64,000 nucleotides of DNA from a virus: positions 230,512 to 294,511 of the IMG/VR virus record IMGVR_UViG_3300029922_000001; one strand, written 5' to 3'. Below the pieces are notes generated by a model, which searched no databases, was not told the DNA's origin, and was given only the letters and a program-made list of their open reading frames with translations. Positions within the stretch are counted from its first letter, which is position 1. The number at the start of each line of letters is the position of its first letter. Positions 8,760 through 58,576 of the stretch are shown here, in pieces. The translations under genes and the position numbers were made by a program.

Positions 8760-8833
8760 TGGTCCCTCTGCTGAGAATCGAACTCAGACCGAACCGTTAT
8801 AAGCGGTTCCGCTCTACCTTGAGCTACAAAGGG
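8760..8833 (-). tRNA. tRNA, anticodon UAU (Ile); CCA encoded
   Basis: Cloverleaf folded by hand: acceptor CCCTTTG/CAGAGGG, T-arm CTGAG-TTCGATT-CTCAG, anticodon stem AACCG/CGGTT with loop CTTATAA. Discriminator A is followed by an encoded CCA, then CGAG. Confidence 0.75.
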
Positions 8834-18429: not shown

Positions 18430-18942
18430 CTAAGTACTATCTTTAGTTGGATTAACACTAAATAATTCTTTTCTTATTTCCATCCACAATTTTCCTAATT
18501 GATTTTGTCCATCTTTATTAGGTCCCCATCCCCAAAAATTATCACGCCAACTACACTCTACGATTGCATTATCACCACTAGCTTTAAGTTTTTTCATAAC
18601 ATACGGATGTTGATTTGCTTTTTCTTTTAAAATTTCTTTCATAATATCAAGTTTAACTTCATCCCAATCAACACGTCTTATATTTTTATTTTCCTCAGCC
18701 CATTTGAAACAAGCATGTGCTGAAGGCATTTTTCTAATCATATTTTTGATTTTTGGATCGTCAAATTTCTCAGAATGATAAGCGTGTTCTGATGTTGGAT
18801 AAATCTTACCCTTCCAATATAGTTGAAATGCAGAAAAATTAGAGAAAATATAATAATCACGTTCATAACAATCAAGGATTGGTAAGTCGTAATTCGCTAA
18901 ATCGTGATATTCAATCATGCTATTATTATAAGTAATCTTCAT
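18430..18942 (-). CDS. NADAR (YbiA-like) domain protein; predicted ADP-ribose N-glycosidase/hydrolase family
   Basis: Family signatures FSNFSAF ... YPTSEHAYHSEKF ... WGWGPNKDGQNQLGKLWMEIR. Confidence 0.8.
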   Translation of the reverse strand: MKITYNNSMIEYHDLANYDLPILDCYERDYYIFSNFSAFQLYWKGKIYPTSEHAYHSEKFDDPKIKNMIRKMPSAHACFKWAEENKNIRRVDWDEVKLDIMKEILKEKANQHPYVMKKLKASGDNAIVECSWRDNFWGWGPNKDGQNQLGKLWMEIRKELFSVNPTKDST

Positions 18943-21013: not shown

Positions 21014-21023
21014 AAACTCTCGG

Positions 21024-21099
21024 AGCGCGGAGGGAGAATCGAACTCAACCGAATAATGGTTTTGCAGACCATTCCAATTAACCACTCTGGTACCCGCGC
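21024..21099 (-). tRNA. tRNA-Cys (GCA)
   Basis: Acceptor GCGCGGG/TCCGCGC. D-arm CCAG-AGTGGTTAA-TTGG. Perfect anticodon stem ATGGT/ACCAT with loop CTGCAAA. Discriminator U, then CC, then GAG. The T-stem is weak. Confidence 0.7.
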
Positions 21100-21121
21100 A
21101 TATTTATCTCGCTGAGGTTCT

Positions 21122-21802
21122 TTATACCTCATATTGCTTCATTAATTCTGGATCACTTTGAGCCGCTATCCATTTATCATATTCTTCAATTTGCTCTTTA
21201 ATTTGTTCAGCACTATCTGCTGTTTTAGATTGGCAACTTTTAATGTCGTTTAATTTACTAAATAATGATTCCACAAGAGGATGTTTTGGTAAATAACATA
21301 TTCCCTTAGAAGCATAATAATCAATTAATTCTTTTTGTTTAAGTTTTGATTCTAATTTATTTTCTTCTGAACATGAACACTTTGGATGAAATGCGTTATA
21401 CATTCTCATATCTTCAATTCTATTTTCTTCAGTGTAAGCACTACAATTAAACAAAATTTCATCATCTTTATCATCCAACTCTAACAGATTAATTAATTCT
21501 TTAATTTTATAAGTTGGTCGATTTTGCTTGTACCAATCCGATTTTTCGTTCTCTTGATTATTTATTAATAAATTCTGTTTTAATGATGGTATTAATTTTT
21601 CAAAAACCTCATGTAGTGTACTTCCTTTAATTTGCACTCTACCAGCAGGTTGAAAATTTAAATTAAATTTAATATTGCCTTTTTTGGACATTGTTAAAGT
21701 CATATGATTCGTTCCACCCATGTTACTTAATCCATCTGGACAATTTTGTAAAAACTCTTTTAATATTTTTAATGTTTTATCTATATTCATTTCCTTTACC
21801 AA
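21122..21802 (-). CDS. hypothetical protein
   Basis: 226-aa ORF. Confidence 0.5.
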   Translation of the reverse strand: MVKEMNIDKTLKILKEFLQNCPDGLSNMGGTNHMTLTMSKKGNIKFNLNFQPAGRVQIKGSTLHEVFEKLIPSLKQNLLINNQENEKSDWYKQNRPTYKIKELINLLELDDKDDEILFNCSAYTEENRIEDMRMYNAFHPKCSCSEENKLESKLKQKELIDYYASKGICYLPKHPLVESLFSKLNDIKSCQSKTADSAEQIKEQIEEYDKWIAAQSDPELMKQYEV

Positions 21803-22137
21803 GATATTGTTAACTGATAACTTTCATAACTTTCATATCCTTCGTATTCACGATCCTTTACAAGAACAACACCATATTCTTCGTCTTCAAAAAACTTTTT
21901 AACATTACAGGCAATTTGATAATTATATAATGTCTCCGTATGACATTCATACTCACCCCTTTTGGCATGTTTTTCAATTAATTTTTTACATTCATCAATG
22001 GTAGTTATTTCTAACTGTTGAAGTCGTAGTTTTTCAGATTGAGCGAATTGTCTTTCTTCTTCTTCAAGAGCAAGTCTTCTTGCTTCAATTTGTTCTTTAG
22101 CTTCTTGAGTTAATCTTCTTGCTTCTTGGATGTTCAT
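21796..22137 (-). CDS. hypothetical coiled-coil protein
   Basis: 113-aa ORF with a charged heptad-like N-terminus. Confidence 0.45.
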   Translation of the reverse strand: MNIQEARRLTQEAKEQIEARRLALEEEERQFAQSEKLRLQQLEITTIDECKKLIEKHAKRGEYECHTETLYNYQIACNVKKFFEDEEYGVVLVKDREYEGYESYESYQLTISW

Positions 22138-22145
22138 TGTAACTA

Positions 22146-22293
22146 TTATACCTTACGACGAATTCGTATGAGAGTATTATCTACTTCTTTTCTTGTGATA
22201 CCTAAAAAAGCAGCAATTGCACGATAAGATTTATTTAAACCATAAGCAATATAAACCTTGGTTTCATTTTGAGTTAATTCTAAATTATTCATA
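22146..22293 (-). CDS. small (about 48 aa) LuxR/sigma-70 region-4-type helix-turn-helix protein; not in the supplied ORF track
   Basis: Hand translation gives MNNLELTQNETKVYIAYGLNKSYRAIAAFLGITRKEVDNTLIRIRRKV. This matches the LuxR-type HTH consensus (LT..E..V......G.s..eIA..LgIs..TV...l.rI..Kl). Coordinates are +/-2 nt. Confidence 0.4.
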
Positions 22294-22318
22294 AGTGTAT
22301 TATAGCATATTTTCTCGC

Positions 22319-22407
22319 GGGAGCTTAGAGATTCGAACTCTAAAGGCGCTTTTTACACGCCTAGCTGTTTTCAAGACAGTTTACCGTCACCAATGGCAGA
22401 ACTCCCG
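22319..22407 (-). tRNA. tRNA-Ser (UGA), class II
   Basis: Acceptor GGGAGTT/AGCTCCC. Anticodon loop CTTGAAA. Variable arm GGCG-TGTAAAAAG-CGCC. T-arm TAGAG-TTCGAAT-CTCTA. Discriminator G, then CGAG. Confidence 0.7.
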
Positions 22408-22516
22408 TATTATTTCGCGGTAAGTAAAATATTCGAATTCGATTCAAAGAATATGAAGACAAACTTTGTTTAATTATTGATTCTATTTTAGGTAGACTTA
22501 ACAATTAAACATCTCG

Positions 22517-22602
22517 AAGACACCAGAATCGAACTGGACTCGCTTTTTACACGAGCGAACAACTTTCCAGGTTGCCGTCATCACCATCAGACATTATCTT
22601 CC
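22517..22602 (-). tRNA. tRNA-Ser (GGA), class II
   Basis: Acceptor GAAGATA/TGTCTTC. Anticodon stem GCAAC/GTTGT with loop CTGGAAA. Variable arm is homologous to that of the Ser(UGA) gene (..GTGTAAAAAGCG..). T-loop TTCGATT. Confidence 0.6.
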
Positions 22603-22615
22603 ATATTATCTCGGA

Positions 22616-22688
22616 GCGCCAAATTGGAATCGAACCAATTTCCTATTGCTTACCAAGCAATCGTTCACCCACATGAACTTTAAGCGCA
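22616..22688 (-). tRNA. tRNA-Thr (GGU)
   Basis: D-arm GTTC/GAAC. Perfect anticodon stem ATTGC/GCAAT with loop TTGGTAA. T-arm ATTGG-TTCGATT-CCAAT. U6:U67 mismatch in the acceptor stem. Discriminator T, then CC, then GAG. Confidence 0.7.
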
Positions 22689-22701
22689 TATATCTCGTGG
22701 A

Positions 22702-22772
22702 GGCTCAATAGAGAATCAAACTCTACTCTGCGGTTTACAAAACCGCTGCATCGTCACAATGCTTTAAAGCCA
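22702..22772 (-). tRNA. tRNA-Thr (UGU); CCA encoded (22699..22701)
   Basis: Acceptor GGCTTTA/TTGAGCC (U:U at 6:67). D-arm GCAT/ATGC. Anticodon stem GCGGT/ACCGC with loop TTTGTAA. T-arm TAGAG-TTTGATT-CTCTA. Confidence 0.7.
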
Positions 22773-22785
22773 TATTATCTCGTAA

Positions 22786-22884
22786 GCCTAGTATCTGATT
22801 CGAACAGATGATGTTTGTATTCTTACTTGTTCTATTTTTTAACACAACAAGGTAAGTGCAATCGACCGCTATGCAAACTAGGCA
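22786..22884 (-). tRNA. intron-containing tRNA (99 nt), probable anticodon UGU (Thr); duplicate of 22702..22772 carrying an insert
   Basis: Perfect acceptor GCCTAGT/ACTAGGC. T-arm ATCTG-TTCGAAT-CAGAT. Anticodon stem CTTAC/GTAAG flanks CTTGT + 18 nt + AA. The insert extends the anticodon helix (CTTGTT/AACAAG). Confidence 0.5.
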
Positions 22885-22898
22885 TTTTATCTCGTGGA

Positions 22899-22984
22899 GG
22901 AAGGCAGCGGGATCGAACCGCAGACGTATTTCAGTCCGTATAGTTTAGCAAACTATCCTAATCGCCGTTTTAGATTACCTTCCA
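22899..22984 (-). tRNA. tRNA-Ser (GCU), class II; CCA encoded (22896..22898)
   Basis: Acceptor GGAAGGT/GCCTTCC. Anticodon stem ATAGT/ACTAT with loop TTGCTAA. Long variable arm. T-loop TTCGATC. Confidence 0.65.
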
Positions 22985-22992
22985 TTATCTCG

Positions 22993-23076
22993 GCTAACGG
23001 GGAGATTCAAACTCCCGAAGGTTTTCACCGATGCATTACGAGTGCATTCCAATTGATCAACTATGGGACGTTAGCA
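22993..23076 (-). tRNA. class II-like tRNA with anticodon CGU (Thr by anticodon; identity uncertain)
   Basis: Perfect acceptor GCTAACG/CGTTAGC. Perfect anticodon stem ATGCA/TGCAT with loop CTCGTAA. Variable arm GGT-GAAA-ACC. T-arm GGGAG-TTTGAAT-CTCCC. Confidence 0.5.
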
Positions 23077-23399
23077 TTTAACATTTCTACATATCTAACT
23101 AAAACCTGACCGTGACACCTTTCTTGTTCGCCCCAACCAGTTTTAGGTCTACAAAAGCATACCAATTTTTTATTATGTAAGGATTTTACCTTATCTTTGA
23201 ATATTAAATCAGTTTCTAATCTATTTTTTAGATATTTTTCATATTCTGGTAAAGTAGAACTAGGAACTTGACCTGGAGATAATACTATTGGATTGCCAAA
23301 ATATCCACTCTGTCCTTTCCCTGCTCTACCTATGTAGACATATTCAGAATCTTGTTCCCAACCCTTGTTGAGATGATATAAATTTACTACTTCAGTCAT
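23061..23399 (-). CDS. DUF4326-like protein
   Basis: VYIGRAGKGQSGYFGNP ... KLVCFCRPKTGWGEQERCHGQVL matches the DUF4326 conserved core as recalled. Its 3' end overlaps the tRNA at 22993..23076 by about 16 nt. Confidence 0.5.
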   Translation of the reverse strand: MTEVVNLYHLNKGWEQDSEYVYIGRAGKGQSGYFGNPIVLSPGQVPSSTLPEYEKYLKNRLETDLIFKDKVKSLHNKKLVCFCRPKTGWGEQERCHGQVLVRYVEMLNANVP

Positions 23400-23952
23400 T
23401 GACTTCCTCTATATATGCTGGTGGCACATATTCTGTTAACCATACACCATTTTCAGAACGATAAAAAACAAATCTATTCAAATCCATTTGCTTTGAATCC
23501 ACCTTCAATAGTGCATACTTTCCTCTTCTAGAACCAACATTAATTGCTGTTTCTATGTTTTCAGAAAGATGAACCGCATGACGATACATCTTCTTAATTC
23601 CTTCCTCTAAAATCATTGGTACAGCATCATATGTTGTACCATGATAAAGAATGGCAGGAGGATTCAATGGAACTAACTGAAGATCAACTTCACAAGAATG
23701 ACCTTGATTGGCTCTAATTCTTGCTCCTGATTCATCATAAGAATATCTTTGCTTATTATTTTCCGTCACTAACTGATCTAAATCAGCCTTTGTGATGTTA
23801 ATATTAAACTTTTTCAAACCGTCTAATAGTTGTGTTACGAATACATAACCTCCAAGATCAAGCTTTTCAACTCCAATCTTTTGTGGCTCATGTCGCAATA
23901 TTAACGAAATAAACTTTCCTATTCTTTTAAATTCACGTTCATCCTTAATCAT
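23392..23952 (-). CDS. tpt1: RNA 2'-phosphotransferase Tpt1/KptA
   Basis: Canonical Tpt1 motifs: ISLILRHEPQKIG, ARIRANQGHS, LYHGT, RHAVHLS. Confidence 0.85.
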   Translation of the reverse strand: MIKDEREFKRIGKFISLILRHEPQKIGVEKLDLGGYVFVTQLLDGLKKFNINITKADLDQLVTENNKQRYSYDESGARIRANQGHSCEVDLQLVPLNPPAILYHGTTYDAVPMILEEGIKKMYRHAVHLSENIETAINVGSRRGKYALLKVDSKQMDLNRFVFYRSENGVWLTEYVPPAYIEEVND

Positions 23953-23974: not shown

Positions 23975-24505
23975 TTACTTTTTAGGTAAGAGCATTACTG
24001 TCATTTGTTTCCCTTGTAAGAGAATTTCCCTATCTACAGTTACAATATCATTTAGTTTTTCCAAACAATATTCCAACTTTTGCTTTCCAATATGAGGGTG
24101 AGCGAGTTCTTTTGTTTTGAACTTGCAAACCAACTGCACTTTGTCATGCTTCCCAATAAATTCAACCGCTTTACGAATTGACGTATCCAAGTCATGTACA
24201 GCCGTATTAGGGCTAATACAAAGTGTTTTAAGTTCTTGAGGCTTTTTACGGTTGTCTTTTGCACGTTTTGCCTCTTCATACTTATATTTGCCATAGCTTA
24301 CGATTTTGCAGATAGGTGGTTGTACCTTATCAGATACGCACAACAAATCTAAACCAGCATCATATGCTATTTGGATTGCATCCTTCGTGGGCATTACACC
24401 AATATTTTTGTTATTAGCGTCAATGACCGTTACTTCGGTAAATTGCTTAATGAGTCTTTCATTAAGGGGTGGGAATTCTCTGCGATTACTTTTTTTCATC
24501 ATCAT
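23975..24505 (-). CDS. infC: translation initiation factor IF3 (bacterial type)
   Basis: N-domain VTVIDANNKNIGVMPTKDAIQIAYDAGLDLLCVSDKVQPPICKIVSYGKYKYEE plus a C-domain. Matches the IF3 family end to end. Confidence 0.85.
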   Translation of the reverse strand: MMMKKSNRREFPPLNERLIKQFTEVTVIDANNKNIGVMPTKDAIQIAYDAGLDLLCVSDKVQPPICKIVSYGKYKYEEAKRAKDNRKKPQELKTLCISPNTAVHDLDTSIRKAVEFIGKHDKVQLVCKFKTKELAHPHIGKQKLEYCLEKLNDIVTVDREILLQGKQMTVMLLPKK

Positions 24506-24602
24506 AATAGATTGACCTATTATACCAGGGTATTCTTCTTCATTACAATCTTTCTCTATTCAATTTTCAATGTGCTTGAGTTTTAATTCTCGGTAAATAA
24601 AA

Positions 24603-24640
24603 AACAGGAAGTCCGACTTAGGTCTGTCGGACTTCCTGTT
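24603..24640. terminator. hairpin AACAGGAAGTCCGAC-(8 nt)-GTCGGACTTCCTGTT
   Basis: 15-bp perfect arms, unusually GC-rich for this sequence. Downstream of the minus-strand gene 24793..25326. Confidence 0.5.
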
Positions 24641-24792
24641 GAATCTTTCTATTTGGTTTTCTTTATGCTTGCCCGACAACAGCATTTCTACAGCTTCCAC
24701 AACTTGTGGAACTGGTAGTACTTGATGTTGATGTTGACGTGACTAATTTCATTTTAACCTGCTACGTTTATTATACCCAATGTTTTGATTGT

Positions 24793-25326
24793 TTACCATG
24801 TTTTTTTGCTTTTACCATCAAAACCTGTTTCTTTTAAGATTCTATCCCAAATTTCTTCTTTTGGAGTGTTCCCTAAATATGGATCTTTTGCCCAATTCAA
24901 GTTGGTAATTTCTAGTATAACAGGAAATGGTGGAGTATAGGCTTCAGCTTCTTCTAAAGAAGAAAATTCCATTTCCATACTAAGCAAATAATGTCTATGG
25001 ATCATATATTCATTAATTTCTTCACCGCTAGATAAAAAAGTTCTTCGTTTTTCAACTCTTTTCATTTTTGGTATTAAATTGTAATTATAAAACCAATTAA
25101 AAAGAAAAATTGGGATTTTAATATTGTATTCTTTTCTGACCAAAGGATCTGAGGTTTTTAATTTAAAAGTTAATTCGCATTTATTTGAAACTGAATATGT
25201 TTTACGAATGCGACAACTTTTAAAAAATGGAAAATATCCTTGTGAAATGTATACGTTGTGTGTTTGAGTATCCCAAGGAATATCATTTTGATTTACTATA
25301 AACTTGCGTTCAATTTCATTAGCCAT
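24793..25326 (-). CDS. hypothetical protein, member of a local tandem paralog family (MANEIERKFIV...)
   Basis: 177 aa. The N- and C-terminal halves recur separately in 25653..25886 and 25340..25600. Confidence 0.5.
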   Translation of the reverse strand: MANEIERKFIVNQNDIPWDTQTHNVYISQGYFPFFKSCRIRKTYSVSNKCELTFKLKTSDPLVRKEYNIKIPIFLFNWFYNYNLIPKMKRVEKRRTFLSSGEEINEYMIHRHYLLSMEMEFSSLEEAEAYTPPFPVILEITNLNWAKDPYLGNTPKEEIWDRILKETGFDGKSKKTW

Positions 25327-25339
25327 GCTTTAGTATACT

Positions 25340-25886
25340 TCATTTACCAGGACCCCACTCAAGACCAGGGAATTTATTTAAATTTTCCTCAATTTCTTTC
25401 CAGGGTGTGATTGATAGATATGGCTCTTTCGCCCAAGGCACATGTGTAATCTCTGTAACGTACTTGAAATCAGGAATATAAGCTTGTGCATCTTCCAGAG
25501 AATCAAATTCCATTTCTACGATTACATAATACTGACCAGGATATTCATTAATTTGTTCTCCTGTTGGAATAATGTGTCGTGTTTTTTTAGTTTTAGTCAT
25601 CCAAGGTGTAAGATACCAAAGCGGGAAAAAGACAAATTTAGGGATTTTAAAGTTATATTCCTTCCTGTCCTAAATTGGTCTGTTTATTCTTGTTTTTCTT
25701 GAATGTCAATTCGTATGTGCGGTCTTCATCTGAATATAATTCTTCATAGGTAATGATAGACTCACGAATTCTGAGATTTTTAATTAAAGGGAAATATCCT
25801 TGGGAAATGTCATGCCATTCTATAACATTTTCCCAAGGAATTTGGGTTGGTCGCACTATAAACTTGCGTTCAATTTCATTAGCCAT
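25340..25886 (-). pseudogene. disrupted paralog of 24793..25326, split into an N-terminal ORF (25653..25886) and a C-terminal ORF (25340..25600) in different frames
   Basis: The 31-nt string TATAAACTTGCGTTCAATTTCATTAGCCAT is identical at 25296..25326 and 25856..25886. C-terminal homology: EMEFDSLEDAQAY..PWAKEPYL versus EMEFSSLEEAEAY..NWAKDPYL. Confidence 0.45.
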
Positions 25887-25893
25887 ATGGCTA

Positions 25894-26883
25894 TTATACT
25901 TGAGCAAGTTCGGCTTGTAGCTCTTTAATGCGCTTTTGGAGTTCAAGTTTCTTTTTAAGTGTCGCTTCTTCTCTAAGCAAAGCTTGGAATTCAGCATCAA
26001 CTTCTTCCACTGCAACAGTCTCTAAAGCAACATGCTTCTTTATGGCTTTAGCTGCTTTAGGCATTTCTGTAGCCAAGATTGGTACATATCCTCTTAGTAT
26101 AAGAGTAAGACTTGTTGCATGATCTTCAATATCAATCCATTCTTTTTGACCAAAGGTTTGATTGGATCTGCTACCTTCAACAGTGCAAACATCTTGTTCT
26201 CTTGATTCATTTAAAGATTTTGGCATAGCATTCGCAAATGAGTCTAAAGAATCCATTGACATGCTTGAAGCGGAATATGTTGGAGAACCAAAGCTTAATG
26301 AATTCAGTGAATTTACTGAATCTGAGCATAATCCTCTTACATTGCTTTTCATGGAAGATTGACCAATTAAAGCATTATTACTACCACACCAGACTTCATC
26401 ATGTCGTCTAGGGTAATGCTTGTAAGGGTATGAATAATCACGATACCAAGGATATGAATAATCATGATAATGATGATGATCTACTACGATTGGAATGTAG
26501 ACTGGTTGTGGTTTTTCTTTTTCTAACCAGAAGAAGGCTTCAACAACACCTTTGGAGCGGTCTTCATTAGAACCATTTTTTCCAAAATCAATAGCGTCAT
26601 TACTGTCTAAAGCAGCTAATTTAAAGCATTTGTTGGTTTCATAGAAGCGTTCAAGATCAATTGCGCTGTTAGCGTTAATAATATATCCATCACCGGATAC
26701 ATTTTCCCCGTCAATATGAATTTTGACCAAGGCTCTACGATTGTTTTTGTTTCTGAGGCGTAAACTATATTCTGATCCGAATGGAACTAGTACAGAATGA
26801 TCGTTTCTCTCTGGGAGAAAGTCGTTTTGATTTTTGAGCTTGATAGCAAGCACGAAGTTTTTGTTATACATATTTTTAACCAT
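25894..26883 (-). CDS. hypothetical protein with His/Tyr-rich low-complexity segment and C-terminal coiled coil
   Basis: The ORF is open to 26949. An internal Met at about 26883 avoids overlapping the divergent PARP gene. Contains HHHYHDYSYPWYRDYSYPYKHY. Confidence 0.5.
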   Translation of the reverse strand: MVKNMYNKNFVLAIKLKNQNDFLPERNDHSVLVPFGSEYSLRLRNKNNRRALVKIHIDGENVSGDGYIINANSAIDLERFYETNKCFKLAALDSNDAIDFGKNGSNEDRSKGVVEAFFWLEKEKPQPVYIPIVVDHHHYHDYSYPWYRDYSYPYKHYPRRHDEVWCGSNNALIGQSSMKSNVRGLCSDSVNSLNSLSFGSPTYSASSMSMDSLDSFANAMPKSLNESREQDVCTVEGSRSNQTFGQKEWIDIEDHATSLTLILRGYVPILATEMPKAAKAIKKHVALETVAVEEVDAEFQALLREEATLKKKLELQKRIKELQAELAQV

Positions 26884-27081
26884 TATAATCCTAACTCTTG
26901 TCCTCATGAGAGCGTGATTCGGCACCTTAATGGCGAGTGCCAAGGACAATTCTATTATACACCCGTTTTGAGGTTTTTTACCTTCGGATTAAAAAACAGT
27001 CCAAACACAATAAAATTAATTATAATAAATTACCTTGTGAATAGGCTTGACAGTCTGAGGAATAGGAGGTATTATAACAAC

Positions 27082-28380
27082 ATGAGTAGCATTCTCGCTA
27101 GTAAGAAATACATTTATACGGATATCCAGGCGAATAACAATAAGTTCTGGAATATTGACCGCTATGACGATCATACAGTAATTACACGTTGGGGACGTGT
27201 TGGCGACAAAGAACAAAGCAAATCTTTCCCACATGGATCTGAAACTTCCGCAATTGCTTTTTTTAATCAAAAGTGTAGTGAAAAATCCAAGAAGGGTTAT
27301 ACCGAACAACGAACCATTGAATCCAATACTACCGTAAAGCAAACAACCGTTGCTTCATCCAATCTTGAAAGTATTGCTAAAAGACAGATTCAAACTAATT
27401 CACCTGAACTAGATGCTTTGATTTCAAGGCTTACCAAAGCTAACATTCATAGCATTGTCGCAAACAGTAATATTAGCTATAACGATACAACTGGTTTGTT
27501 TTCAACGCCATTAGGAATTATTGATGAAGATGCGATTTTGGAAGCTAGAGAACTTCTAGTGTCCATTAATTCTATTGTTCTCAATAGAGACTTTGGAAAT
27601 AAGGATTTTGCTGGAATCACCAATAAGTATTTTAGAATCGTTCCTACAGTTATCGGTAGATATCGTCAAGAACCTCAAGACCTATTCCCTAATAAGGAAA
27701 CCGTTGTAAAGCAAAATGATCTTTTGGACTCACTTGAAGTCAGCTTGCAAACTGCTAAGGCAACCCCTGTAACTGCTACAACATCTGTTGAACCTGAAAA
27801 GAACATCTTTAATGTTAAGCTTCATGTGGTTGATGATCTTCCTGTTATTCAACGAATTACAGCCAAATATCAATCAACAATGAATCGTGGTCATCAGTGT
27901 TCCCATCTTGGTGTTAAGCGTGTTTATGAATTAGAAATTGGTGCTATGAAGACTGCTTTCGAAAATAAGGGTAAGCAAATTGGTGGTATTCAAGAGTTGT
28001 GGCACGGTTCAAGAGTTGCCAATATTCTTTCTATTCTCTATAAGGGAATGATTATCCCACCTTCTAATTCTAGTTTTGTGGCTGGTCGTTTGTTTGGAGA
28101 CGGTTTGTATTTTGCCAACCAAAGCACAAAGTCTCTTAATTATTCTTATGGATATTGGGATGCTAAAGGCAAGGACGAAAATTGCTTTATGTTCCTTTGT
28201 GATGTAGCTATGGGCAAGCACTATACTCCTAAGTATTTACAATCCAATATTCCTGCTGGATATGATAGTTTCTGGGCTAAGGCTGGTATTTCTGGCGTAC
28301 AGAATGATGAAATCATCGTTCCACGTCTTTATCAAGCCAATCCTAGATATTTGATCGAATTCTCACCAGGTGGTAGATAA
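27082..28380 (+). CDS. poly(ADP-ribose) polymerase (WGR domain + PARP regulatory/catalytic domains)
   Basis: WGR domain FWNIDRYDDHTVITRWGRVGDKEQSKS. Catalytic region HGSRVANILSILYKGM ... GDGLYFANQSTKSLNYS ... E in the C-terminus. True ATG is at 27082; the longer track ORF from 26797 overlaps the neighbouring gene. Confidence 0.85.
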   Translation: MSSILASKKYIYTDIQANNNKFWNIDRYDDHTVITRWGRVGDKEQSKSFPHGSETSAIAFFNQKCSEKSKKGYTEQRTIESNTTVKQTTVASSNLESIAKRQIQTNSPELDALISRLTKANIHSIVANSNISYNDTTGLFSTPLGIIDEDAILEARELLVSINSIVLNRDFGNKDFAGITNKYFRIVPTVIGRYRQEPQDLFPNKETVVKQNDLLDSLEVSLQTAKATPVTATTSVEPEKNIFNVKLHVVDDLPVIQRITAKYQSTMNRGHQCSHLGVKRVYELEIGAMKTAFENKGKQIGGIQELWHGSRVANILSILYKGMIIPPSNSSFVAGRLFGDGLYFANQSTKSLNYSYGYWDAKGKDENCFMFLCDVAMGKHYTPKYLQSNIPAGYDSFWAKAGISGVQNDEIIVPRLYQANPRYLIEFSPGGR

Positions 28381-32864: not shown

Positions 32865-33530
32865 ATGTGTAACATGAATCCAACTCAACAAAACTTAATG
32901 GAATTGATTCTTCAATCCAAACTCGCAAACAACGAACTCTTCACCGCTTTTGACATTACTTTGGCTATTAGAGCTAGTGGTGTTCCAGTTTTTCACAATG
33001 AAGTTCGTGAAGCTATTCATGATGCTTATCTAAATGGTGGTATGGGCAATCTTTATATTAAGACCTACCATAAGCTAGGCAATGGAGAATCAGCGTTTGT
33101 TTTCCATCCTCACACTATCGGCGTTTATAACTACCAGATTCAACCTGTAACAGTTAATCAGCCTACTAACAAGAATTCACAACCAGCTAACGTTGTTCCA
33201 GCTAAGATTACACCAACTTTGGTTAAGACTAAGCGTAATAGCGATCCTTCTAGCTTGACACCTGATGCATGGCAACGAATTCGTATTCCTGCTCAGCTTA
33301 CAAGACAAATTGGTTTGAAGCCTTACGATTATGCTGACATCAGTTTTGATTCTAAGACCGGCACCATTCAAGTTGGTAAGGTTGGTTCAAATCCTAGCGC
33401 ACTTCAATCTAATACAGTTGACCAATATGGCAACATCAGAATTGGTTTGAAACAGCACAATATTAACGCAACTCAATTTAAGACCATTCCGCTTCCTAGT
33501 AAGGGTCTTTTGCAAATCATTGCTGATTAA
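32865..33530 (+). CDS. hypothetical protein
   Basis: 221-aa ORF. Convergent with the 33578..34270 gene across a palindromic hairpin. Confidence 0.5.
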   Translation: MCNMNPTQQNLMELILQSKLANNELFTAFDITLAIRASGVPVFHNEVREAIHDAYLNGGMGNLYIKTYHKLGNGESAFVFHPHTIGVYNYQIQPVTVNQPTNKNSQPANVVPAKITPTLVKTKRNSDPSSLTPDAWQRIRIPAQLTRQIGLKPYDYADISFDSKTGTIQVGKVGSNPSALQSNTVDQYGNIRIGLKQHNINATQFKTIPLPSKGLLQIIAD

Positions 33531-33577: not shown

Positions 33578-34270
33578 TTATTTCTTGTCAGATAAGTCTT
33601 TAGCTTCTTCTTCTGCATAAAGTAGACGATCTTCATCCTTGAAGAATGATGCATCTGACATACAAGCTGCTCCAGCTAAAGCCATACGAGAGGTTGCTTG
33701 TCCAACAGTGCTATACATAGCTCTTGTTGCACCCTTCCTATAATTAAATGAATTAGCTTGTGTTCCACCTAGCTGTTGAGCAACACCCCAAGCGTTCATG
33801 TCTGCACCCAGATAAGTGAATGTCCATTGTCCAGTAGCTTCTAATTCTGAAATCAAAGTTTTAAGCTTAGTAGTATCTTTATATTCTTTAGAAGAATTTT
33901 CATGACCATCAGTGTTAACCACTACAACAGATTTATATTCGCCTGATAGTTCATTCTTAGCTCTATAAACCGTAATACCAATACCATCCCATAATGCAGT
34001 CATGCCATTTGGAGCGTACGTATTGGTTGTTAATGGTTCTACTTCACTAAGAGGCTTATTTGCATAAACTGTAGTTACTTGATTACTGAATTTAACGAGA
34101 GTGACATAATAAACTACATCAACGTCTTTCTTGAGGGTGTCGATATACTCATTGATACCTTCAATGAGTTCAAGTCTGACGTTTTCCATTGAACTGGATT
34201 CGTCAAGGATCAAATATACATAAACTGGAATATTTGATGGAATCTGGGCTGTTACATTTGCTTCTACCAT
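33578..34270 (-). CDS. VWA-domain protein
   Basis: MIDAS motif DESSSM near the N-terminus, plus VVVNTDGHENS. Confidence 0.65.
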   Translation of the reverse strand: MVEANVTAQIPSNIPVYVYLILDESSSMENVRLELIEGINEYIDTLKKDVDVVYYVTLVKFSNQVTTVYANKPLSEVEPLTTNTYAPNGMTALWDGIGITVYRAKNELSGEYKSVVVVNTDGHENSSKEYKDTTKLKTLISELEATGQWTFTYLGADMNAWGVAQQLGGTQANSFNYRKGATRAMYSTVGQATSRMALAGAACMSDASFFKDEDRLLYAEEEAKDLSDKK

Positions 34271-34303: not shown

Positions 34304-35779
34304 ATGAATCAGTTATGGTATACTAACTCCATGTTTGACACAGATCGTTTAATTCATTTAGAAAAGCTACAAGAAGCTGGTTTAAATCCATTTGATAATT
34401 ATGGATTTAAGATGACTTCACCAATTGGGTTATATCTTGATACTTTTAATGTATTGATTAATGCTGTTTGTTTTGATAATACACATAGTTTATGTGGTCG
34501 CATTATTTCTATGCGTATTATGGGTAATATGGCTTTTGTTGATATTTCCGATGGTTCTCACAAGGTCCAGGCTGTTTTCCGTAAGAACCTAATGGATGCT
34601 GACACTTATAAGGCATTAAGATACCTAGATGAAGGTGATCATATTGGCGTGACTGGCAATCCATTTCTTACCCAAGCTGGTGAGAAGTCAATTCTTGTTA
34701 CAGAAATTAAGGTTCTAAGTAAGTGTCTTATCCCTTTACCAATTGGTAAGAGGAAGGATGGGGAAGTCTTTGATGCAGTTGTAGATCCAGATATTAGGCT
34801 TAGGCATCGTCATATTGACCTTGTAGCCAATCCAGATAATAGGGCGATGTTAATTGCACGTTCAAAGATGGTAAGCTGTATTAGGCGATTTTTAGATCAA
34901 GAAGATTTTCTTGAAGTTGAAACACCTTTACTAACTGAGGTTGCTGGTGGAGCAAGTGCTAAGACATTTGATACTCATTATAATGCTTATGATTTAGATA
35001 TGCATCTTCGTATTTCTTTGGAAATTCCTTTGAAGAAGTTGATTTGTGGTGATATTCCTGCCGTTTATGAAATTGGTAAGGTTTTCCGCAATGAAGGTGC
35101 TGACGCAACTCATAATCCAGAATTTACACTTTTGGAATGGTATCGTGCGTATTCAACACCAGAAGAGGAAATGCAAAGGGTTCAAGATTTAGTTTCATAT
35201 TTGATGCAAAAGTGGGATGCTGATCCTGCATGGGATGTAATTACTGTGCGTGATGCTATTTTAACCTATGTGCCTGATGTTTCCTGGTATGATCTTGATG
35301 TTATTGAGAAAATGAGAGAACATGCTCGTAGAAATGGAATCCATGTAACAGATCAAGATACTATGGGGAAGATTGAAGAAAAGCTAGTCGCTAAGTTCGT
35401 TGAGCCTAATCTGTTATATCCCACATTCTTAACAGAACATCATATCAGTAATTCACCTTTAGCTAGAACAGCACCAGGGAAGCCTGATCGTGCTTATAGA
35501 TTTGAAGCATATATTAATGGTTATGAAATCGCTAATGGTTATTCTGAGTTAAACAATGCAGTTGAACAAAAGGAACGATTAGAGGATCAAGTAGCTCAAA
35601 GAAATGGTGGAGACGCTGAAGCACAACCTTATGATCAAGATTTTATTTATGCTCTTGCCTCCGGTTGCCCTGCCGTAACGGGCGTGGGAATCGGTCTAGA
35701 TAGATTGGCAATGGTATTATATGGAGCAACACAAATTAGGCAAGTAATATTTTTCCCAACAATGAAGCATAGGAGTTAA
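34304..35779 (+). CDS. lysS: lysyl-tRNA synthetase (class IIb)
   Basis: N-terminal OB anticodon-binding domain. Motif 2 FRNEGADATHNPEFTLLEWYRAY is LysRS-specific (HNPEFT). Motif 3 GVGIGLDRLAMVL. Confidence 0.9.
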   Translation: MNQLWYTNSMFDTDRLIHLEKLQEAGLNPFDNYGFKMTSPIGLYLDTFNVLINAVCFDNTHSLCGRIISMRIMGNMAFVDISDGSHKVQAVFRKNLMDADTYKALRYLDEGDHIGVTGNPFLTQAGEKSILVTEIKVLSKCLIPLPIGKRKDGEVFDAVVDPDIRLRHRHIDLVANPDNRAMLIARSKMVSCIRRFLDQEDFLEVETPLLTEVAGGASAKTFDTHYNAYDLDMHLRISLEIPLKKLICGDIPAVYEIGKVFRNEGADATHNPEFTLLEWYRAYSTPEEEMQRVQDLVSYLMQKWDADPAWDVITVRDAILTYVPDVSWYDLDVIEKMREHARRNGIHVTDQDTMGKIEEKLVAKFVEPNLLYPTFLTEHHISNSPLARTAPGKPDRAYRFEAYINGYEIANGYSELNNAVEQKERLEDQVAQRNGGDAEAQPYDQDFIYALASGCPAVTGVGIGLDRLAMVLYGATQIRQVIFFPTMKHRS

Positions 35780-44557: not shown

Positions 44558-44567
44558 ATTTATCTCG

Positions 44568-44651
44568 TCCCGGCGAGTGGACTCGAACCACCACGCCCTT
44601 TCAGGCAACAGATTTTGAGTCTGCCGCATCTACCAATTACACCACACCGGG
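44568..44651 (-). tRNA. tRNA-Leu (CAA), class II
   Basis: Acceptor CCCGGTG/CGCCGGG. Anticodon stem GCAGA/TCTGT with loop CTCAAAA. Variable arm GCC-TGAAAG-GGC. T-arm GGTGG-TTCGAGT-CCACT. Discriminator A, then CGAG. Confidence 0.75.
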
Positions 44652-44871
44652 ATATTTCTCGTATAAGAAATTAATTCTTATTTTGTGAATCAAGTTGTCT
44701 TACTCTACTAAATAAAGCATCTCTCATTTCTTTGTTTTCACTTACTTCTTTAGCGTATGCACCCATCATATTTCTAAACATTTTTTGACCTTCTTCAGTA
44801 TTCATTGCTGATTCAATTATTTTCATTTTTTCAGGACTTGTTATAATCATATTAATTCTCCAATATCTCGG

Positions 44872-44973
44872 TGAGCAAACAGGGACTTGAACCCTGATGA
44901 CATTTTACTGTCGATGGGTTAGCAAAATTCTGATCTTGCTAAGCCCATTGCGTCTACATTTCGCCATTCGCCC
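44872..44973 (-). tRNA. intron-containing tRNA-Leu (UAG), class II, 102 nt with an 18-nt insert in the anticodon loop
   Basis: Acceptor GGGCGAA/TTTGCTC. Anticodon stem ATGGG/CCCAT flanks CTTAG + 18 nt + AA. The insert forms the TTAGCAA/TTGCTAA helix with the anticodon. Variable arm GACA-GTAAAA-TGTC. T-arm CAGGG-TTCAAGT-CCCTG. Confidence 0.55.
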
Positions 44974-44982
44974 ATATTCTCG

Positions 44983-45068
44983 TGCGGAGTAAAAGATTTG
45001 AACTTTCACCTGTTGATAAGACAGAATGGGACCTTAGCCCATCGCGGCTACCATTACGCCAACCCCGC
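44983..45068 (-). tRNA. tRNA-Leu (AAG), class II
   Basis: Acceptor GCGGGGT/ACTCCGC. D-arm GCG/CGC. Perfect anticodon stem ATGGG/CCCAT with loop CTAAGGT. Variable arm CTGT-CTTATCA-ACAG. T-arm GAAAG-TTCAAAT-CTTTT. Confidence 0.75.
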
Positions 45069-45077
45069 ATATTCTCG

Positions 45078-45159
45078 TCCGGGCGAGAGGGTTTGAACCT
45101 CCATGTCTTGCGACGGCAGGTTTTAAACCTGCTGCGGCTACCAATTTCGCCACACCCGG
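45078..45159 (-). tRNA. tRNA-Leu (UAA), class II
   Basis: Acceptor CCGGGTG/CGCCCGG. Anticodon stem GCAGG/CCTGC with loop TTTAAAA. Variable arm GTC-GCAA-GAC. T-arm GGAGG-TTCAAAC-CCTCT. Confidence 0.75.
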
Positions 45160-45417: not shown

Positions 45418-46764
45418 GTGAAACAAATTATTACAGCTAAATTAAAATTAGAAACAAATAAAGAACAATTTAAAGAATTAACTAATCTTAGTTTAGCTTA
45501 TTGTGGCGCTTTGAATTTTGGCTCTAATAAAGCCTTTGAATTAGACAAAACTACTAATGCTAACTTATTGCACAAAAGTATATATCGAGAATGTCGTGAT
45601 AAATTTGGATTACCATCACAATTAGCTTGTAGCGTTTCTAGATATGTTACTGCTTCTTATAAAACATTGTGGACAATTACCAATAAAAATATTAAAGCAA
45701 GAAAAAACAAAGAAACTAAGAGAGTTTATAAAGGACTGAATAAAGCTCCAAAATATATATCAAGAACGACTATGTTTCAATATGGTAGAGATTTTACATT
45801 CAAGAAGGATCAACAAATTAGTATTATTACTCTTAATGGAAGAATTCTTCTAGATTATAAAGGATGGAATAAACATCTTAATTTAATTAAAGATGAAAAT
45901 ACCAAAATTGGTGGAGCTAAACTTTATTATGATAAAGCTAAGAAAACTTTCTATCTCTTAGTTAGTTTAGAAATAGAAACACAAGAAGAAAAACAAATTA
46001 ACACAATAGGTATTGATTTGGGTCAAAGATATTTGGCTGTGGTAACTGATACACAAGATAATACATTGTTTATTCCTGGTAAGGAATGTATTAATCAAGT
46101 TGGAAAATATCAACGAGTTCGTAGTAGTCTTCAAAAAAAGATTAAAACGAATAAGAAAAATGGTAAAGGCACTCGTTCTATAACTAGAAAATTAATCCAA
46201 GTTAAAGGACAAGAGAGACGGTATAGATTATCATTAAATCATCAAACAGCAAGTTCGATATTACAAAGATTTCCTAATTCAAATATAGGATTAGAAAATC
46301 TTAAAGATATTAGAACAAGAACAGAAAGACATAGCAGTAAAAAAGATAGCAAAAAAAGAAAAGAAGCTAATCGTAATAAAGCTTCTTGGTCTTTTAATGA
46401 GTTACAACAATTAATAGAATATAAAGCTAATTTATATGGTAGTAAAATATTTAAAGTAGATGCCCATTATACATCTCAAATGTGTACTAAATGTGGTTAT
46501 ACTTCTAAAGAAAACAGACCTAAAAGTGGCTTGAATTTTATTTGTTGTAATTGTAATTTTAAATTACATGCTGATTTGATTGGAGCTAGAAATATAGCTA
46601 TGAGAACATTGTTATCTAGACAAGATTTAGATAATAAGGGGCATTTATCAATTGTCCCAGTAAGCGGCAAAGCCGCTTTAGATACCTCGAACAGTGAAGT
46701 TAAAGCGGAATCCTTGAAAAAGTATTCTGAATTGAGATGGAGTTCGGAGGCAAACTTAACTTAA
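45418..46764 (+). CDS. tnpB: TnpB (IS200/IS605 OrfB) RuvC-like RNA-guided-nuclease family protein (Fanzor/TnpB-like)
   Basis: RuvC-I IGIDLGQRYLAVVTD. RuvC-II ..SWSFNELQQLIEYKA. Zinc finger CTKCGY ... CCNCNF. RuvC-III HADLIGARNIAMR. GTG start in the track. Confidence 0.8.
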   Translation: MKQIITAKLKLETNKEQFKELTNLSLAYCGALNFGSNKAFELDKTTNANLLHKSIYRECRDKFGLPSQLACSVSRYVTASYKTLWTITNKNIKARKNKETKRVYKGLNKAPKYISRTTMFQYGRDFTFKKDQQISIITLNGRILLDYKGWNKHLNLIKDENTKIGGAKLYYDKAKKTFYLLVSLEIETQEEKQINTIGIDLGQRYLAVVTDTQDNTLFIPGKECINQVGKYQRVRSSLQKKIKTNKKNGKGTRSITRKLIQVKGQERRYRLSLNHQTASSILQRFPNSNIGLENLKDIRTRTERHSSKKDSKKRKEANRNKASWSFNELQQLIEYKANLYGSKIFKVDAHYTSQMCTKCGYTSKENRPKSGLNFICCNCNFKLHADLIGARNIAMRTLLSRQDLDNKGHLSIVPVSGKAALDTSNSEVKAESLKKYSELRWSSEANLT

Positions 46765-51205: not shown

Positions 51206-52018
51206 ATGAATATAAAAGTTAGTGGAATATATAGAATTATAAACAAAATAAACAATAAATCATATGTAGGAAGTTCTACAGATATACAAGATAGATGGTG
51301 GAAACATAGAAAAATGTTAAAAAATAATAATCATTCTAATCCTCATTTACAGGCATCATATAATAAATATTCAAGTGTTGTTTTTGATTTTGAAATATTG
51401 CAATCTATGCCAGGGGCAACCACTAAAGAACTCCAAGAAAAAGAATTATCATGGATGTTATTTTTAAATGTACATAATAATAAAAATGGGTATAACATTA
51501 ACGGAGTTGAAGGTTATAAAATAGGTTTTAAGCACACTGAAGAAACTAAAAAGAAAATAAGTGAATCTGTAAAAAACAGAACATACACAGAAGAACAATT
51601 GGAAAATTTAAGAAACAATTTAAGTAAAATAATTAACAATCCAGAAACGAAAAGGAAAATTTCAGAATCTAAAAAAGGAAAATTATTAACAAAAGAACAT
51701 AAAAGGAAAATTTCAGAATCTAAAAAAGGAAAATTATTAACAGAAGAACATAAAAGAAAAGTTGGTGATGGTAATCGCGGTAAAATAATAAGCGAAGACA
51801 CAAGAGAAAAACAAAAAATATCTATTTTAAACAATAAGGAATTTATGAACAAATTAATTAAAAAATGGATAATAATAAATCCTGATGGGGAAGAATATAA
51901 AATAGAAAATTTATCTCAATTTTGTAGAGATAATCAATTAAGAGATGGATGTATGTCTTTAGTTGCGCAAGGTAAAAGAAAATCACATAAAGGATGGAGT
52001 TGTTATGAAATTAAATAA
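51206..52018 (+). CDS. GIY-YIG homing endonuclease with NUMOD3-type DNA-binding repeats (T4 Seg-like)
   Basis: [18 protein letters not shown] ... R..H (GIY-YIG core). Tandem repeats [16 protein letters not shown](K/E)[24 protein letters not shown]. Confidence 0.8.
51655..51750 (+). repeat. direct tandem repeat (about 42 nt x 2.2) encoding the NUMOD3-like [14 protein letters not shown] unit inside the GIY-YIG gene
   Basis: AAAGGAAAATTTCAGAATCTAAAAAAGGAAAATTATTAACA.AGAACATAAAAG appears twice in succession. Confidence 0.6.
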
Positions 52019-52553
52019 TATTAACATTTTTTATACTGCGATCAAATTCACATTAAGTTTTGAGGGGTCATATAGTTTAAATAAAGATGATCCAGGTGGG
52101 GCTACAAACTATGGAATTATTCAATCTGAATATAATATCTATAGAAAATCTAAAAAACTACCAGAACAATCTGTTAAGTTAATTACAATAGTTGAAGTTA
52201 AAGATATCTATAAAAACAGTTATTGGTTGTCTGCCAAATGTGATAAATATCAAACAAAATTAGCTATTGTAATGTTTGATACCGCTGTTAATTTTGGGAC
52301 CGGTAGAGCCGCAAAATGGCTTCAAAAATCACTAGATGTTGCACAAGATGGTGCTATTGATCCAGCTACTTTAGCAAAATTAGCAAAAACAGATCAAGGA
52401 TTATTAGCCAATAGAATTTGTGAGTATAGAATTGCATTCAGATATGCAAGAGTAGCATCTGCGCCTAGTCAAAAAGTCTTTTTAAATGGTTGGCTTAATA
52501 GAGACAATGCACTTAAAAAACTAATTGGTGGGACTATCACTTTGGTTAGTTAA
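51963..52553 (+). CDS. GH108-type lysozyme-like N-terminal domain + peptidoglycan-binding (PG_binding_3-like) C-terminal domain; endolysin-like peptidoglycan hydrolase
   Basis: [20 protein letters not shown] is the GH108 catalytic-Glu motif. The C-terminus ..[11 protein letters not shown] resembles the PG-binding domain. The likely start is the internal ATG near 52005 (MKLNNINIF). Confidence 0.7.
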
Positions 52554-52684: not shown

Positions 52685-53794
52685 CTAAAGCAGTGGGCTT
52701 GTTACAACCGCGCTTTGCGCGGGAACAATAGGGATATTGACTAATCCCCTACATTGAATATTTAAGGAAGCATTATAATCAGCATTAGCAGCGAAGCTGC
52801 AAGATAAACATTTAAATTCACTCTGATTCTTCCTATTTTTCTTATTACAATATCCACAATGAGAACACGTCTGGGACGTGTATGCTGGATTAACAAGAAA
52901 AACAGGAACACCTTGTTCCTTGGCTTTATATTCAATAAACGATCTAAGTTGAGCGAAGCTCCAACTTAATCTTTCATTACGATTAGCTTTTCTGACCGTT
53001 ACTCTTTTATTGATTCCTTTTAACTCTTCTAGAGCTATACCAAATTGAGTGCCTTTAGCTTTATTAACTATTTCTTTGGAAATACAATGATTAACATCTT
53101 TTCTAAATCTTGATTCTTTATTTCCAATAGTTTTAATTCTTTTCTTTGCAGAGCGTGTCCCACGCTTCTGTAATCTCGTTCTGTGATCATGATATTTCTT
53201 TCTCTTATTTTCTATTTTATCAGAACTATAGATAGTATTATCAGAAGTAGTAGCAATATTTTTAACACCTAAATCGACTCCAATAATTCCTTTAGTATTA
53301 TATTTTTCTTCAGTTGGAGTTGGAATATCAAGAGTACATAATAAGTAAAATTTATTATTTTGAAGTACTAGATCAACTTGACCTTTTCTAAATTTAAATA
53401 ATTCATTATTCCATATTTGGATTGGAATATTCATTCTTCCTTCAATAGTCCAAATATTAACTATTTTATTATTTTTAAAAGTAATAACTCTGTCGTCATA
53501 GACGACAGCAGAAGTTTTCTTAAATGAATTAGGATATTTTCTATGTTTACTTATTTTATAAGAACAAGATACAACGTCAATAGCTCTAATGGTTAATTGA
53601 GAAGAAAATTCTTTATATTTTTCTCTTGAAGGATGATAAACAATTTTTTGCAATTGATTTTTATGAAATTGCCCAACTTTAAAAGCTTCTTCAGAAAATT
53701 CATTACAAATTTGATTAAAGACATTCATCGTGCCCAAGAGGGCACGATATTGATTATCATCTGTATTTAGCTTAATCTTCAATATTTTCTTCAC
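52685..53794 (-). CDS. tnpB: TnpB (IS200/IS605 OrfB) RuvC-like nuclease family protein, second diverged copy
   Basis: RuvC-I IGVDLGVKNIATTSD. RuvC-II ..SWSFAQLRSFIEYKA. Zinc finger CSHCGY ... CLSCSF. RuvC-III ADYNASLNI. Confidence 0.8.
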   Translation of the reverse strand: MKKILKIKLNTDDNQYRALLGTMNVFNQICNEFSEEAFKVGQFHKNQLQKIVYHPSREKYKEFSSQLTIRAIDVVSCSYKISKHRKYPNSFKKTSAVVYDDRVITFKNNKIVNIWTIEGRMNIPIQIWNNELFKFRKGQVDLVLQNNKFYLLCTLDIPTPTEEKYNTKGIIGVDLGVKNIATTSDNTIYSSDKIENKRKKYHDHRTRLQKRGTRSAKKRIKTIGNKESRFRKDVNHCISKEIVNKAKGTQFGIALEELKGINKRVTVRKANRNERLSWSFAQLRSFIEYKAKEQGVPVFLVNPAYTSQTCSHCGYCNKKNRKNQSEFKCLSCSFAANADYNASLNIQCRGLVNIPIVPAQSAVVTSPLL

Positions 53795-58294: not shown

Positions 58295-58576
58295 ATGTTT
58301 AAATTCCTTAGAAATATATTTAGCAAAGAAGCTGAAGCTTCATGGGTACACTGTGGTACCTATTTAGACACCAATCATTATTACGCAGCAGATGATTGCT
58401 ATTGTGTGAACTGTTTACCTGATAGCCCAGCTTACTCTCTGGTTAAGGTGTTTAAAAAACACACTAGAGATAATAAATGGCAGATGAAGGAAACTATATT
58501 CGCATTATCTCTCGAAGAGTATCAAGGATATTCAAAGAAAATCCCTAACACTCTGATGCCACCACCTATTAGTTGA
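58295..58576 (+). CDS. small Cys-rich protein
   Basis: WVHCGTYLDTNHYYAADDCYCVNC. Confidence 0.4.
   Translation: MFKFLRNIFSKEAEASWVHCGTYLDTNHYYAADDCYCVNCLPDSPAYSLVKVFKKHTRDNKWQMKETIFALSLEEYQGYSKKIPNTLMPPPIS

Follow-up and report, generated by a model that had tools for sequence, protein, structure and literature searches.

A Compact PARP-Family Gene of a Huge Phage and the Gene Linked to It

Introduction

Surveys of jumbo phages (PMC7824862, PMC9503650, PMC11662467) and of bacteria (PMC5966428, PMC8120803) have recorded proteins of the PARP family, and a PARP homolog of phage Aeh1 was already noted in 2005 (PMC1266365). Here, we describe a PARP gene located at 27082–28380 on the plus strand of a stretch of viral DNA of 64,000 nucleotides (nt), hereafter called the window, which covers positions 230,512 to 294,511 of the IMG/VR record IMGVR_UViG_3300029922_000001. 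By architecture, the closest enzymes with a known activity come from bacteria. Bacterial PARPs that combine a WGR domain, a helical regulatory domain, and a catalytic domain have been reviewed (PMC8120803), and two of them were studied biochemically, namely HaPARP of Herpetosiphon aurantiacus (A9B244) and CdPARP of Clostridioides difficile CD160 (T3DQ72). Both modify themselves with poly(ADP-ribose) (PAR) on activated DNA, and this reaction is sensitive to inhibitors and is reversed by their cognate poly(ADP-ribose) glycohydrolases (PARGs) (PMC5966428).

For phages, a survey of jumbo genomes named BBA65562.1 of XacN1 as a phage PARP and suggested that such enzymes work like other phage ADP-ribosyltransferases (ARTs), except that they add chains (PMC7824862). 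Meanwhile, a survey of viral NAD+ and ADP-ribose enzymes ranked PARP as one of the commonest ART families of viruses (PMC9503650), and a 2024 study of gut jumbo phages listed PARP among NAD-dependent enzymes, as a DNA-damage sensor (PMC11662467). The Alt, ModA, and ModB proteins of phage T4 are likewise phage-encoded, NAD+-dependent ADP-ribosyltransferases, but they belong to the R-S-E clade, have neither a WGR nor a helical domain, and act as mono-transferases on host proteins. In the window protein, we found the H-Y-E motif rather than R-S-E, and PARP-type models were the only matches, with none to an Alt/VIP2-type fold.

Domain Architecture and Active Site

The PARP gene is an intact open reading frame (ORF) encoding a protein of 432 amino acids (aa). 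Its frame is open from 26797 to 28380 on the plus strand, across 527 codons, and the ATG at 27082 is its start codon. A Shine-Dalgarno-like AGGAGG, read from the sequence, lies 12 nt before this ATG (27064–27069, plus strand). The same ATG was chosen by gene callers on two independent assemblies, and the relatives, with 420–440 aa, begin at the same place. In addition, a 521,591-bp ENA metagenome contig, of which the window is a part, and an independent Logan assembly encode an identical PARP, and a version with 99% identity and the same flanking genes was found in a third assembly. The gene is real and intact, and the ORF, Pfam, PHROG, AlphaFold2, and Foldseek results all identify it as a PARP.

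The protein has the WGR–helical domain–ART (WGR-HD-ART) architecture of PARP1–3, as the first-pass annotation of the window had proposed; Pfam, the AlphaFold2 model, and Foldseek agree on this point. The WGR domain (aa 12–77; 27115–27312, plus strand; Pfam PF05406, E 5.5e-16) carries the motifs NNNKFW (aa 18–23) and WGR (aa 37–39). Across the family, residues N18, N20, K21, W23, G38, R39, K68, and Y73 vary little or not at all, and G38 and R39 of the WGR motif are invariant in a family alignment of 30 sequences. The helical regulatory (HD-like) domain follows at aa ~95–226 (27364–27759, plus strand), as judged from Pfam PARP_reg and from the helices of the model. PARP_reg (PF02877) matched aa 141–219 with 26.6 bits, which is 0.2 under its cut-off of 26.8, and most relatives pass this Pfam model. 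The PLG motif of the domain is conserved, and in the phmmer alignment 'STPLG' of the window protein pairs with 'KAPLG' of PARP2. Finally, the ART catalytic domain occupies aa ~245–429 (27814–28368, plus strand; PF00644 at aa 257–415, E 2.7e-23).

The first-pass annotation had also read an HGS...Y...E motif from the sequence, and the alignment with PARP1 and PARP4 confirmed the triad. According to the phmmer residue alignment, H308 (codon 28003–28005), Y343 (28108–28110), and E410 (28309–28311), all on the plus strand, pair with H862, Y896, and E988 of PARP1. The segments around them match as well: LWH308GS corresponds to LWH862GS of PARP1, GLY343FA to GIY896FA, TK350S351LNY354 to SK903S904ANY907, and NDE410IIV to YNE988YIV of PARP1 and DDEFVV of PARP4. 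Thus, all residues of the NAD+ pocket of PARP1 (H862, G863, Y896, K903, S904, Y907, and E988) have counterparts in the window protein. Furthermore, H308, G309, Y343, K350, Y354, and E410 are invariant in all 30 aligned relatives and are retained in 366–367 of 367 family members. Absence of the catalytic glutamate had been named as the finding that would overturn the first reading of this gene; since E410 is present and aligned with E988, this objection falls away. The enzyme looks active.

The AlphaFold2 model, built from 30 relatives, has a mean predicted local distance difference test score (pLDDT) of 85.8. It places a helical domain of ~130 residues between the WGR domain and the ART fold, with helices at aa 95–102, 109–127, 149–167, 176–186, and 205–226. 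When the model was compared with the PDB, Foldseek ranked WGR-CAT chains from human PARP1 and PARP2 on DNA breaks highest (8g0h, 4dqy, and 7aeo), with E values of ~1e-24 over ~475–495 aligned columns. The eukaryotic PARP1–3 proteins share the WGR-HD-ART core with the window protein, but the latter has only ~20% identity to them and lacks their N-terminal DNA-binding extensions, and its region equivalent to Y907–E988 is shorter. By sequence, the match to eukaryotic PARP1/2 has an E value of 4e-16.

Distribution and Phylogeny

A word-indexed search returned 769 relatives. The best 120 of these are all PARP-domain proteins, almost all of ~430 aa (395–455 aa in all but two) and with the same domains, at 43–73% identity. 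In an exhaustive search against 1.84 billion representatives, 391 clusters at 50% identity had E<=1e-30. The single-protein scan of IMG/VR gave one locus only, and the following counts rest on an alignment-based scan. In IMG/VR, 67 viral contigs, many of them 200–550 kb long, carry full-length relatives, and PARP relatives were found in 27 GTDB bacterial genomes. The bacterial carriers are mostly Armatimonadota, Blastocatellia, and Gemmataceae; the others include Gemmobacter, a Paracoccus plasmid, Treponema, and a metagenome-assembled genome (MAG) of Bacteriovoracaceae. In addition, the family has its own PHROG (phrog_23333), which matches the window protein at aa 17–427 (E 5e-59). These numbers do not support the first-pass view that, apart from eukaryotes and their large viruses, this architecture is seldom found.

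Homologs are also present in cultured phages, including XacN1, Xoo-sp13, three Klebsiella phages, and the Cellulophaga phages phi4:1 and phi17:2. The PARPs of the Xanthomonas phages (XacN1 BBA65562.1 and Xoo-sp13) and of the Klebsiella phages 05F01 and FBKp34 share 36–38% identity with the window protein over 97–99% of the query, and those of phi4:1 and phi17:2 share 25% identity over their full length. Most of these copies carry the annotation poly(ADP-ribose) polymerase or ADP-ribosylation enzyme, and the copy of Klebsiella phage KP13-16 is a hypothetical protein. Two Stenotrophomonas phages carry homologs that are unannotated or labeled hypothetical. The annotated jumbo-phage PARPs fall in phrog_23333, like the window protein.

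Phylogenetic placement of the gene had been recommended with the first reading. In a neighbor-joining tree, made without bootstrap and with a sampling shaped by the search patterns, the window PARP lies inside a prokaryotic clade dominated by viruses and far from human PARP2. It groups with the metagenomic sequences P0002, P0003, P0010, and P0005. Meanwhile, the bacterial group of Armatimonadota and Blastocatellia is nested within the virus-dominated diversity. In the samples retrieved, most of the diversity of compact WGR-PARPs sits on large phage genomes. By its sequence, the window PARP is a member of a compact (~430 aa) bacterial and jumbo-phage family that is already known from sequence, and it is not an anomaly. 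It adds one more divergent, intact member to a family that has been surveyed before, and the general picture is unchanged.

Possible Function and Alternatives

By analogy with the characterized enzymes, the window gene probably encodes a functional compact bacterial/phage PARP, that is, a break-activated ADP-ribosyl (probably poly-ADP-ribosyl) transferase that would mark breaks in phage DNA. The N-terminal WGR domain would bind a DNA strand break, and this binding would relieve the autoinhibition by the helical domain. With NAD+ as the donor, the H308-Y343-E410 site would then ADP-ribosylate the enzyme itself and DNA-bound proteins close by, and the ADP-ribose would probably be added in chains. 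During infection, judging from the gene context, the enzyme may mark breaks in phage DNA that is replicating or under attack and may work with the NADAR, DUF4326, Tpt1/KptA, and Macro-domain proteins encoded by the same phage. It may also act together with a conserved downstream DNA-binding partner (see below).

We infer DNA-dependent activation and PAR synthesis from human PARP1/2, HaPARP, and CdPARP. Like the window protein, HaPARP and CdPARP consist of a bare WGR-helical-ART chain with no zinc fingers and no BRCT domain, and they are of similar size (47–52 kDa). The H-Y-E residues are spaced by 37 and 69 residues in CdPARP and by 35 and 67 in the window protein. In addition, HaPARP and CdPARP have the same three conserved WGR regions, and these regions are the ones tied to the DNA-dependent activity of CdPARP (PMC5966428). 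The two enzymes are bacterial, whereas the window PARP is encoded by a phage.

Some neighborhoods of the related genes hold genes of DNA repair. An ATP-dependent DNA ligase, a T4-type RNA ligase, and an isochorismatase-family (possibly nicotinamidase-like) gene each occur near PARP in ~8 viral loci, and a macro-like 'phosphatase' occurs in ~7. In a Blastocatellia MAG (locus L107, 5973–9530), an ExoIII-like gene, the PARP gene, the gene of the downstream partner, and a gene for an SRAP (abasic-site) protein follow one another in what looks like a DNA-repair cluster, with RuvB and SbcC close by.

The phage also has an unusually full set of NAD+ and ADP-ribose genes. On the minus strand, Pfam annotation identified Tpt1/KptA (PTS_2-RNA; an NAD+-dependent 2'-phosphotransferase) at 23392–23952 and DUF4326 at 23061–23399; the latter family is predicted to process ADP-ribose phosphates (PMC9503650). 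A NADAR protein (Pfam PF08719, phrog_1017), which is a candidate ADP-ribose-removing enzyme, is encoded at 18430–18918 (minus strand), and a Macro-domain gene, another candidate of this kind, lies ~8 kb past the end of the window (L102, 663–1235). The set further includes cREC_REC (55271–55696, plus strand), two NadR-like AAA_28 genes (1486–2034 and 53962–54582, both on the minus strand), and a PNKP-like kinase-phosphatase (57372–58250, plus strand). In a relative with a 99%-identical PARP (L003), a gene for NadA (quinolinate synthase) is inserted 2 kb downstream of PARP. This phage could thus be a candidate for studying a phage ADP-ribose 'writer' together with candidate 'erasers'.

Several points weigh against this reading of the function. 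PARP3 and PARP4 keep the H-Y-E triad yet are mono-transferases, so chain synthesis requires the triad but does not follow from it alone. The stretch from Y354 to E410 is ~25 residues shorter than in PARP1. The window itself shows no repair context, and the immediate neighbors of the PARP gene have no family match in Pfam or PHROG. No PARG-type glycohydrolase was found in the Pfam annotation of the window (~1–59.5 kb and 61.5–64 kb), and in this the phage copy, with no PARG seen nearby, differs from HaPARP and CdPARP, whose bacteria pair PARP with PARG. Moreover, the likeness of these two enzymes to the window protein is one of architecture and motif spacing, as given in PMC5966428. Finally, in the literature searched, we found no experimental study of any phage PARP.

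An alternative, though a doubtful one, is a PARP3-like mono-ADP-ribosyltransferase, which might act on the 5' or 3' phosphates of DNA ends instead of making polymers on proteins, for example to cap or mark the termini of phage DNA. PARP4, which shares the triad, is among the best C-terminal matches, and the short loop region before E410 compared with PARP1 would fit such an enzyme. In addition, the Tpt1/KptA and NADAR proteins of the same phage belong to families tied to nucleic-acid ADP-ribosylation chemistry (PMC9503650, PMC12945103). However, both tested bacterial enzymes of the same architecture make PAR that is detectable with anti-PAR antibodies (PMC5966428), and nothing in the sequence specifically indicates DNA as the acceptor.

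We think it unlikely that the protein is a host-takeover enzyme in the manner of T4 Alt, ModA, and ModB, but one that places chains, on host proteins such as RNA polymerase or translation factors, regardless of DNA damage, as was suggested for jumbo-phage PARPs (PMC7824862). Such use is common among phage ARTs (PMC7824862, PMC9503650), and the PARP gene stands at a strand switch among genes for translation and RNA repair (IF3, tRNAs, and Tpt1). However, strong conservation of the WGR domain and of its DNA-contact motifs across the family argues for DNA sensing. Furthermore, the PARP gene is neither near the head and packaging genes nor fused to MuF-type domains, and the bacterial members occur in chromosomal DNA-repair contexts.

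It is very improbable that the protein drains NAD+ by hyperactivation on fragmented DNA, so as to shut off the host or exclude competing phages. Hyperactivation of PARP is well known to deplete NAD+ in eukaryotic cells, and the NadA of L003 and the two NadR-like AAA_28 genes might offset such a loss. However, NAD+ depletion is normally a defense of the host that phages counter, and the gene context shows no tie to toxin-antitoxin or exclusion modules. Recent capture from a eukaryote or a giant virus, or an assembly chimera, is extremely improbable, because the 'eukaryotic' look of the architecture in the first-pass annotation is all that favored it, whereas the best eukaryotic matches have ~20% identity against 45–73% for prokaryotic and phage ones, the neighbor-joining tree puts the protein in the virus-dominated prokaryotic clade, three assemblies made independently all contain the locus, with its flanks conserved, and the GC content is uniform; we therefore rejected a recent eukaryotic origin on the identities and the tree.

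A Gene Linked to PARP

ORFs in the neighborhood of 92 PARP loci were grouped by clustering, and a local hidden Markov model (HMM) was then run iteratively. This revealed a family of proteins of 190–270 aa, hereafter the partner, in 42 of the 92 loci (38 of 67 viral and 4 of 25 bacterial). The partner gene is on the same strand as PARP in all 42 loci, downstream of it in 41, and immediately adjacent to it in 20. When the PARPs were collapsed at 70% identity, the partner was still present in 33 of 55 virus-containing clusters. In the window, the partner gene, detected by the local HMM, encodes 218 aa at 32874–33530 (plus strand), 4.5 kb and eight genes downstream of PARP. In a phage with a 58%-identical PARP, it is at the +2 position. 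Other loci with the partner include L007, L009, L015, L059, L064, L105 (11759–12367), and L107 (8318–8812). In contrast to the window phage, XacN1 and 05F01 have no such gene within 5 kb of PARP.

The partner has an N-terminal domain of ~90 aa with the conserved motif FTAFDVT...H..V...Y.RT...A.VYHP..DP.DY, then a low-complexity linker, and, in the phage copies, a C-terminal AbrB/MazE-like domain. For this last domain, PF04014 scored above its cut-off in the relatives P0265 and P0270. The N-terminal domain is covered by no Pfam or PHROG model, and a word-indexed search with the partner alignment returned seven matches only. A model of the window partner, from an alignment of seven sequences, is of low confidence (pLDDT 58) and shows a helix-helix-helix-strand-strand topology at the N terminus, for which Foldseek gave weak matches to PadR and Fur winged helices (E 0.02–0.3). 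The N-terminal domain may tentatively be called winged-helix-like, and on these models the partner is probably a DNA-binding protein.

The linkage between PARP and the partner is observed directly in the loci, and a functional coupling of the two is speculation. In the literature searched, we found nothing on a pairing of WGR and AbrB proteins, and the linkage has apparently not been described before. One might imagine, with little confidence, that PARP and the winged-helix/AbrB-like gene form a conserved two-gene module of huge phages and some bacteria, in which the partner would be a dedicated substrate or co-factor of PARP. If so, the module would be a prokaryotic counterpart of the pairing of PARP with histones and HPF1, and phages might use it to label and handle breaks in their DNA, such as those left by nucleases of host defenses. 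To our knowledge, HPF1 is absent from prokaryotes. The linked and unannotated partner could open a way into the role of PARylation in prokaryotic systems.

A VWA gene (33578–34270, minus strand) directly follows the partner gene of the window on the opposite strand, and in XacN1 a VWA gene (L101, 6279–6929) comes directly after the PARP gene. The VWA gene may be a second recurrent neighbor of PARP.

Genome Context

The window comes from a huge phage of ~520 kb without close cultured relatives. The first-pass annotation had taken it for a prokaryotic virus, and the genes found bear this out. They include a lysin with GH108 and PG_binding_3 domains (52005–52553), IF3 (23975–24505), and two adjacent paralogous genes resembling a major head protein (phrog_2522; 58569–59789 and 59948–61045, minus strand). 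The only isolate match of the head protein is Bacillus phage G, with 22% identity, so the lineage is very distant from cultured phages. A megablast search with 20 kb of the window matched no deposited phage in INPHARED. The GC content is even, at 0.28–0.38 in 2-kb windows.

An aminoacyl-tRNA synthetase is encoded at 34331–35779. We also observed 11 tRNAs and a tmRNA (tag GKSYAYVG) at 8760–8833, 21022–23075, 44567–45159, and 63063–63416; the tRNA set includes clusters of Ser/Thr and Leu isoacceptors and a tRNA-Ile(TAT). Huge phages typically carry such a combination of tRNAs, tmRNA, IF3, and aminoacyl-tRNA synthetase.

Near the PARP gene (~24000–28000), both the gene orientation and the GC skew flip, and the cumulative GC skew has its minimum there. 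The genes upstream of PARP lie on the minus strand and those downstream on the plus strand, so the PARP gene heads a divergent transcription block. A scan for promoters and terminators around the gene gave counts at or below the shuffled expectation. The sequence TTGACA-17-TATTAT at 27047–27075 was disregarded as a promoter, because it is not above chance, overlaps the ribosome-binding site, and is too near the ATG.

The divergent gene upstream of PARP (25894–26883, minus strand) encodes a His/Tyr-rich protein with a coiled-coil-like C-terminal tail and with no match in Pfam or PHROG. Its most upstream possible start is at 26949. Judging from the ortholog in L104, which begins with MVKNMYN at the corresponding residue, translation likely starts at the ATG at 26883. 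The first-pass annotation had described a His/Tyr-rich gene that overlaps the 5' region of PARP divergently. The His/Tyr-rich stretch (HHHYHDYSYPWYRDYSYPYKHYPRRH) is real, but the coding sequences do not overlap and are separated by 132–198 nt, with a divergent intergenic region at 26884–27081. The apparent overlap comes from the untranslated upstream extension of the PARP frame (26797–27081) and is an ORF-extension artifact. The divergent arrangement is kept in the related phages L003 and L104 (50% identity) and not beyond. We rejected the His/Tyr-rich gene as a conserved partner of PARP, because it is conserved only in these two closest phages.

Among the other neighbors, the 142-aa protein directly downstream of PARP has no Pfam or PHROG match, and for a 157-aa protein the only matches are PHROGs of unknown function. 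Farther upstream, two tandem paralogs that start with MANEIERKFIV lie at 24793–25326, 25340–25600, and 25653–26015 (all on the minus strand). The second copy is apparently split in two ORFs, and the only PHROG match is phrog_6660 (unknown function). The start of these proteins is ExExK-like and resembles that of CYTH proteins by eye; Pfam gave no match, and we did not assign them to this family.

The window also contains two TnpB/OrfB_IS605 (Cas12f-like) genes (45418–46764, plus strand; 52685–53794, minus strand), a GIY-YIG homing endonuclease (51206–52018, plus strand), and an HNH endonuclease. In L104, the PARP gene itself is flanked by genes resembling NUMOD3 and LAGLIDADG endonucleases.

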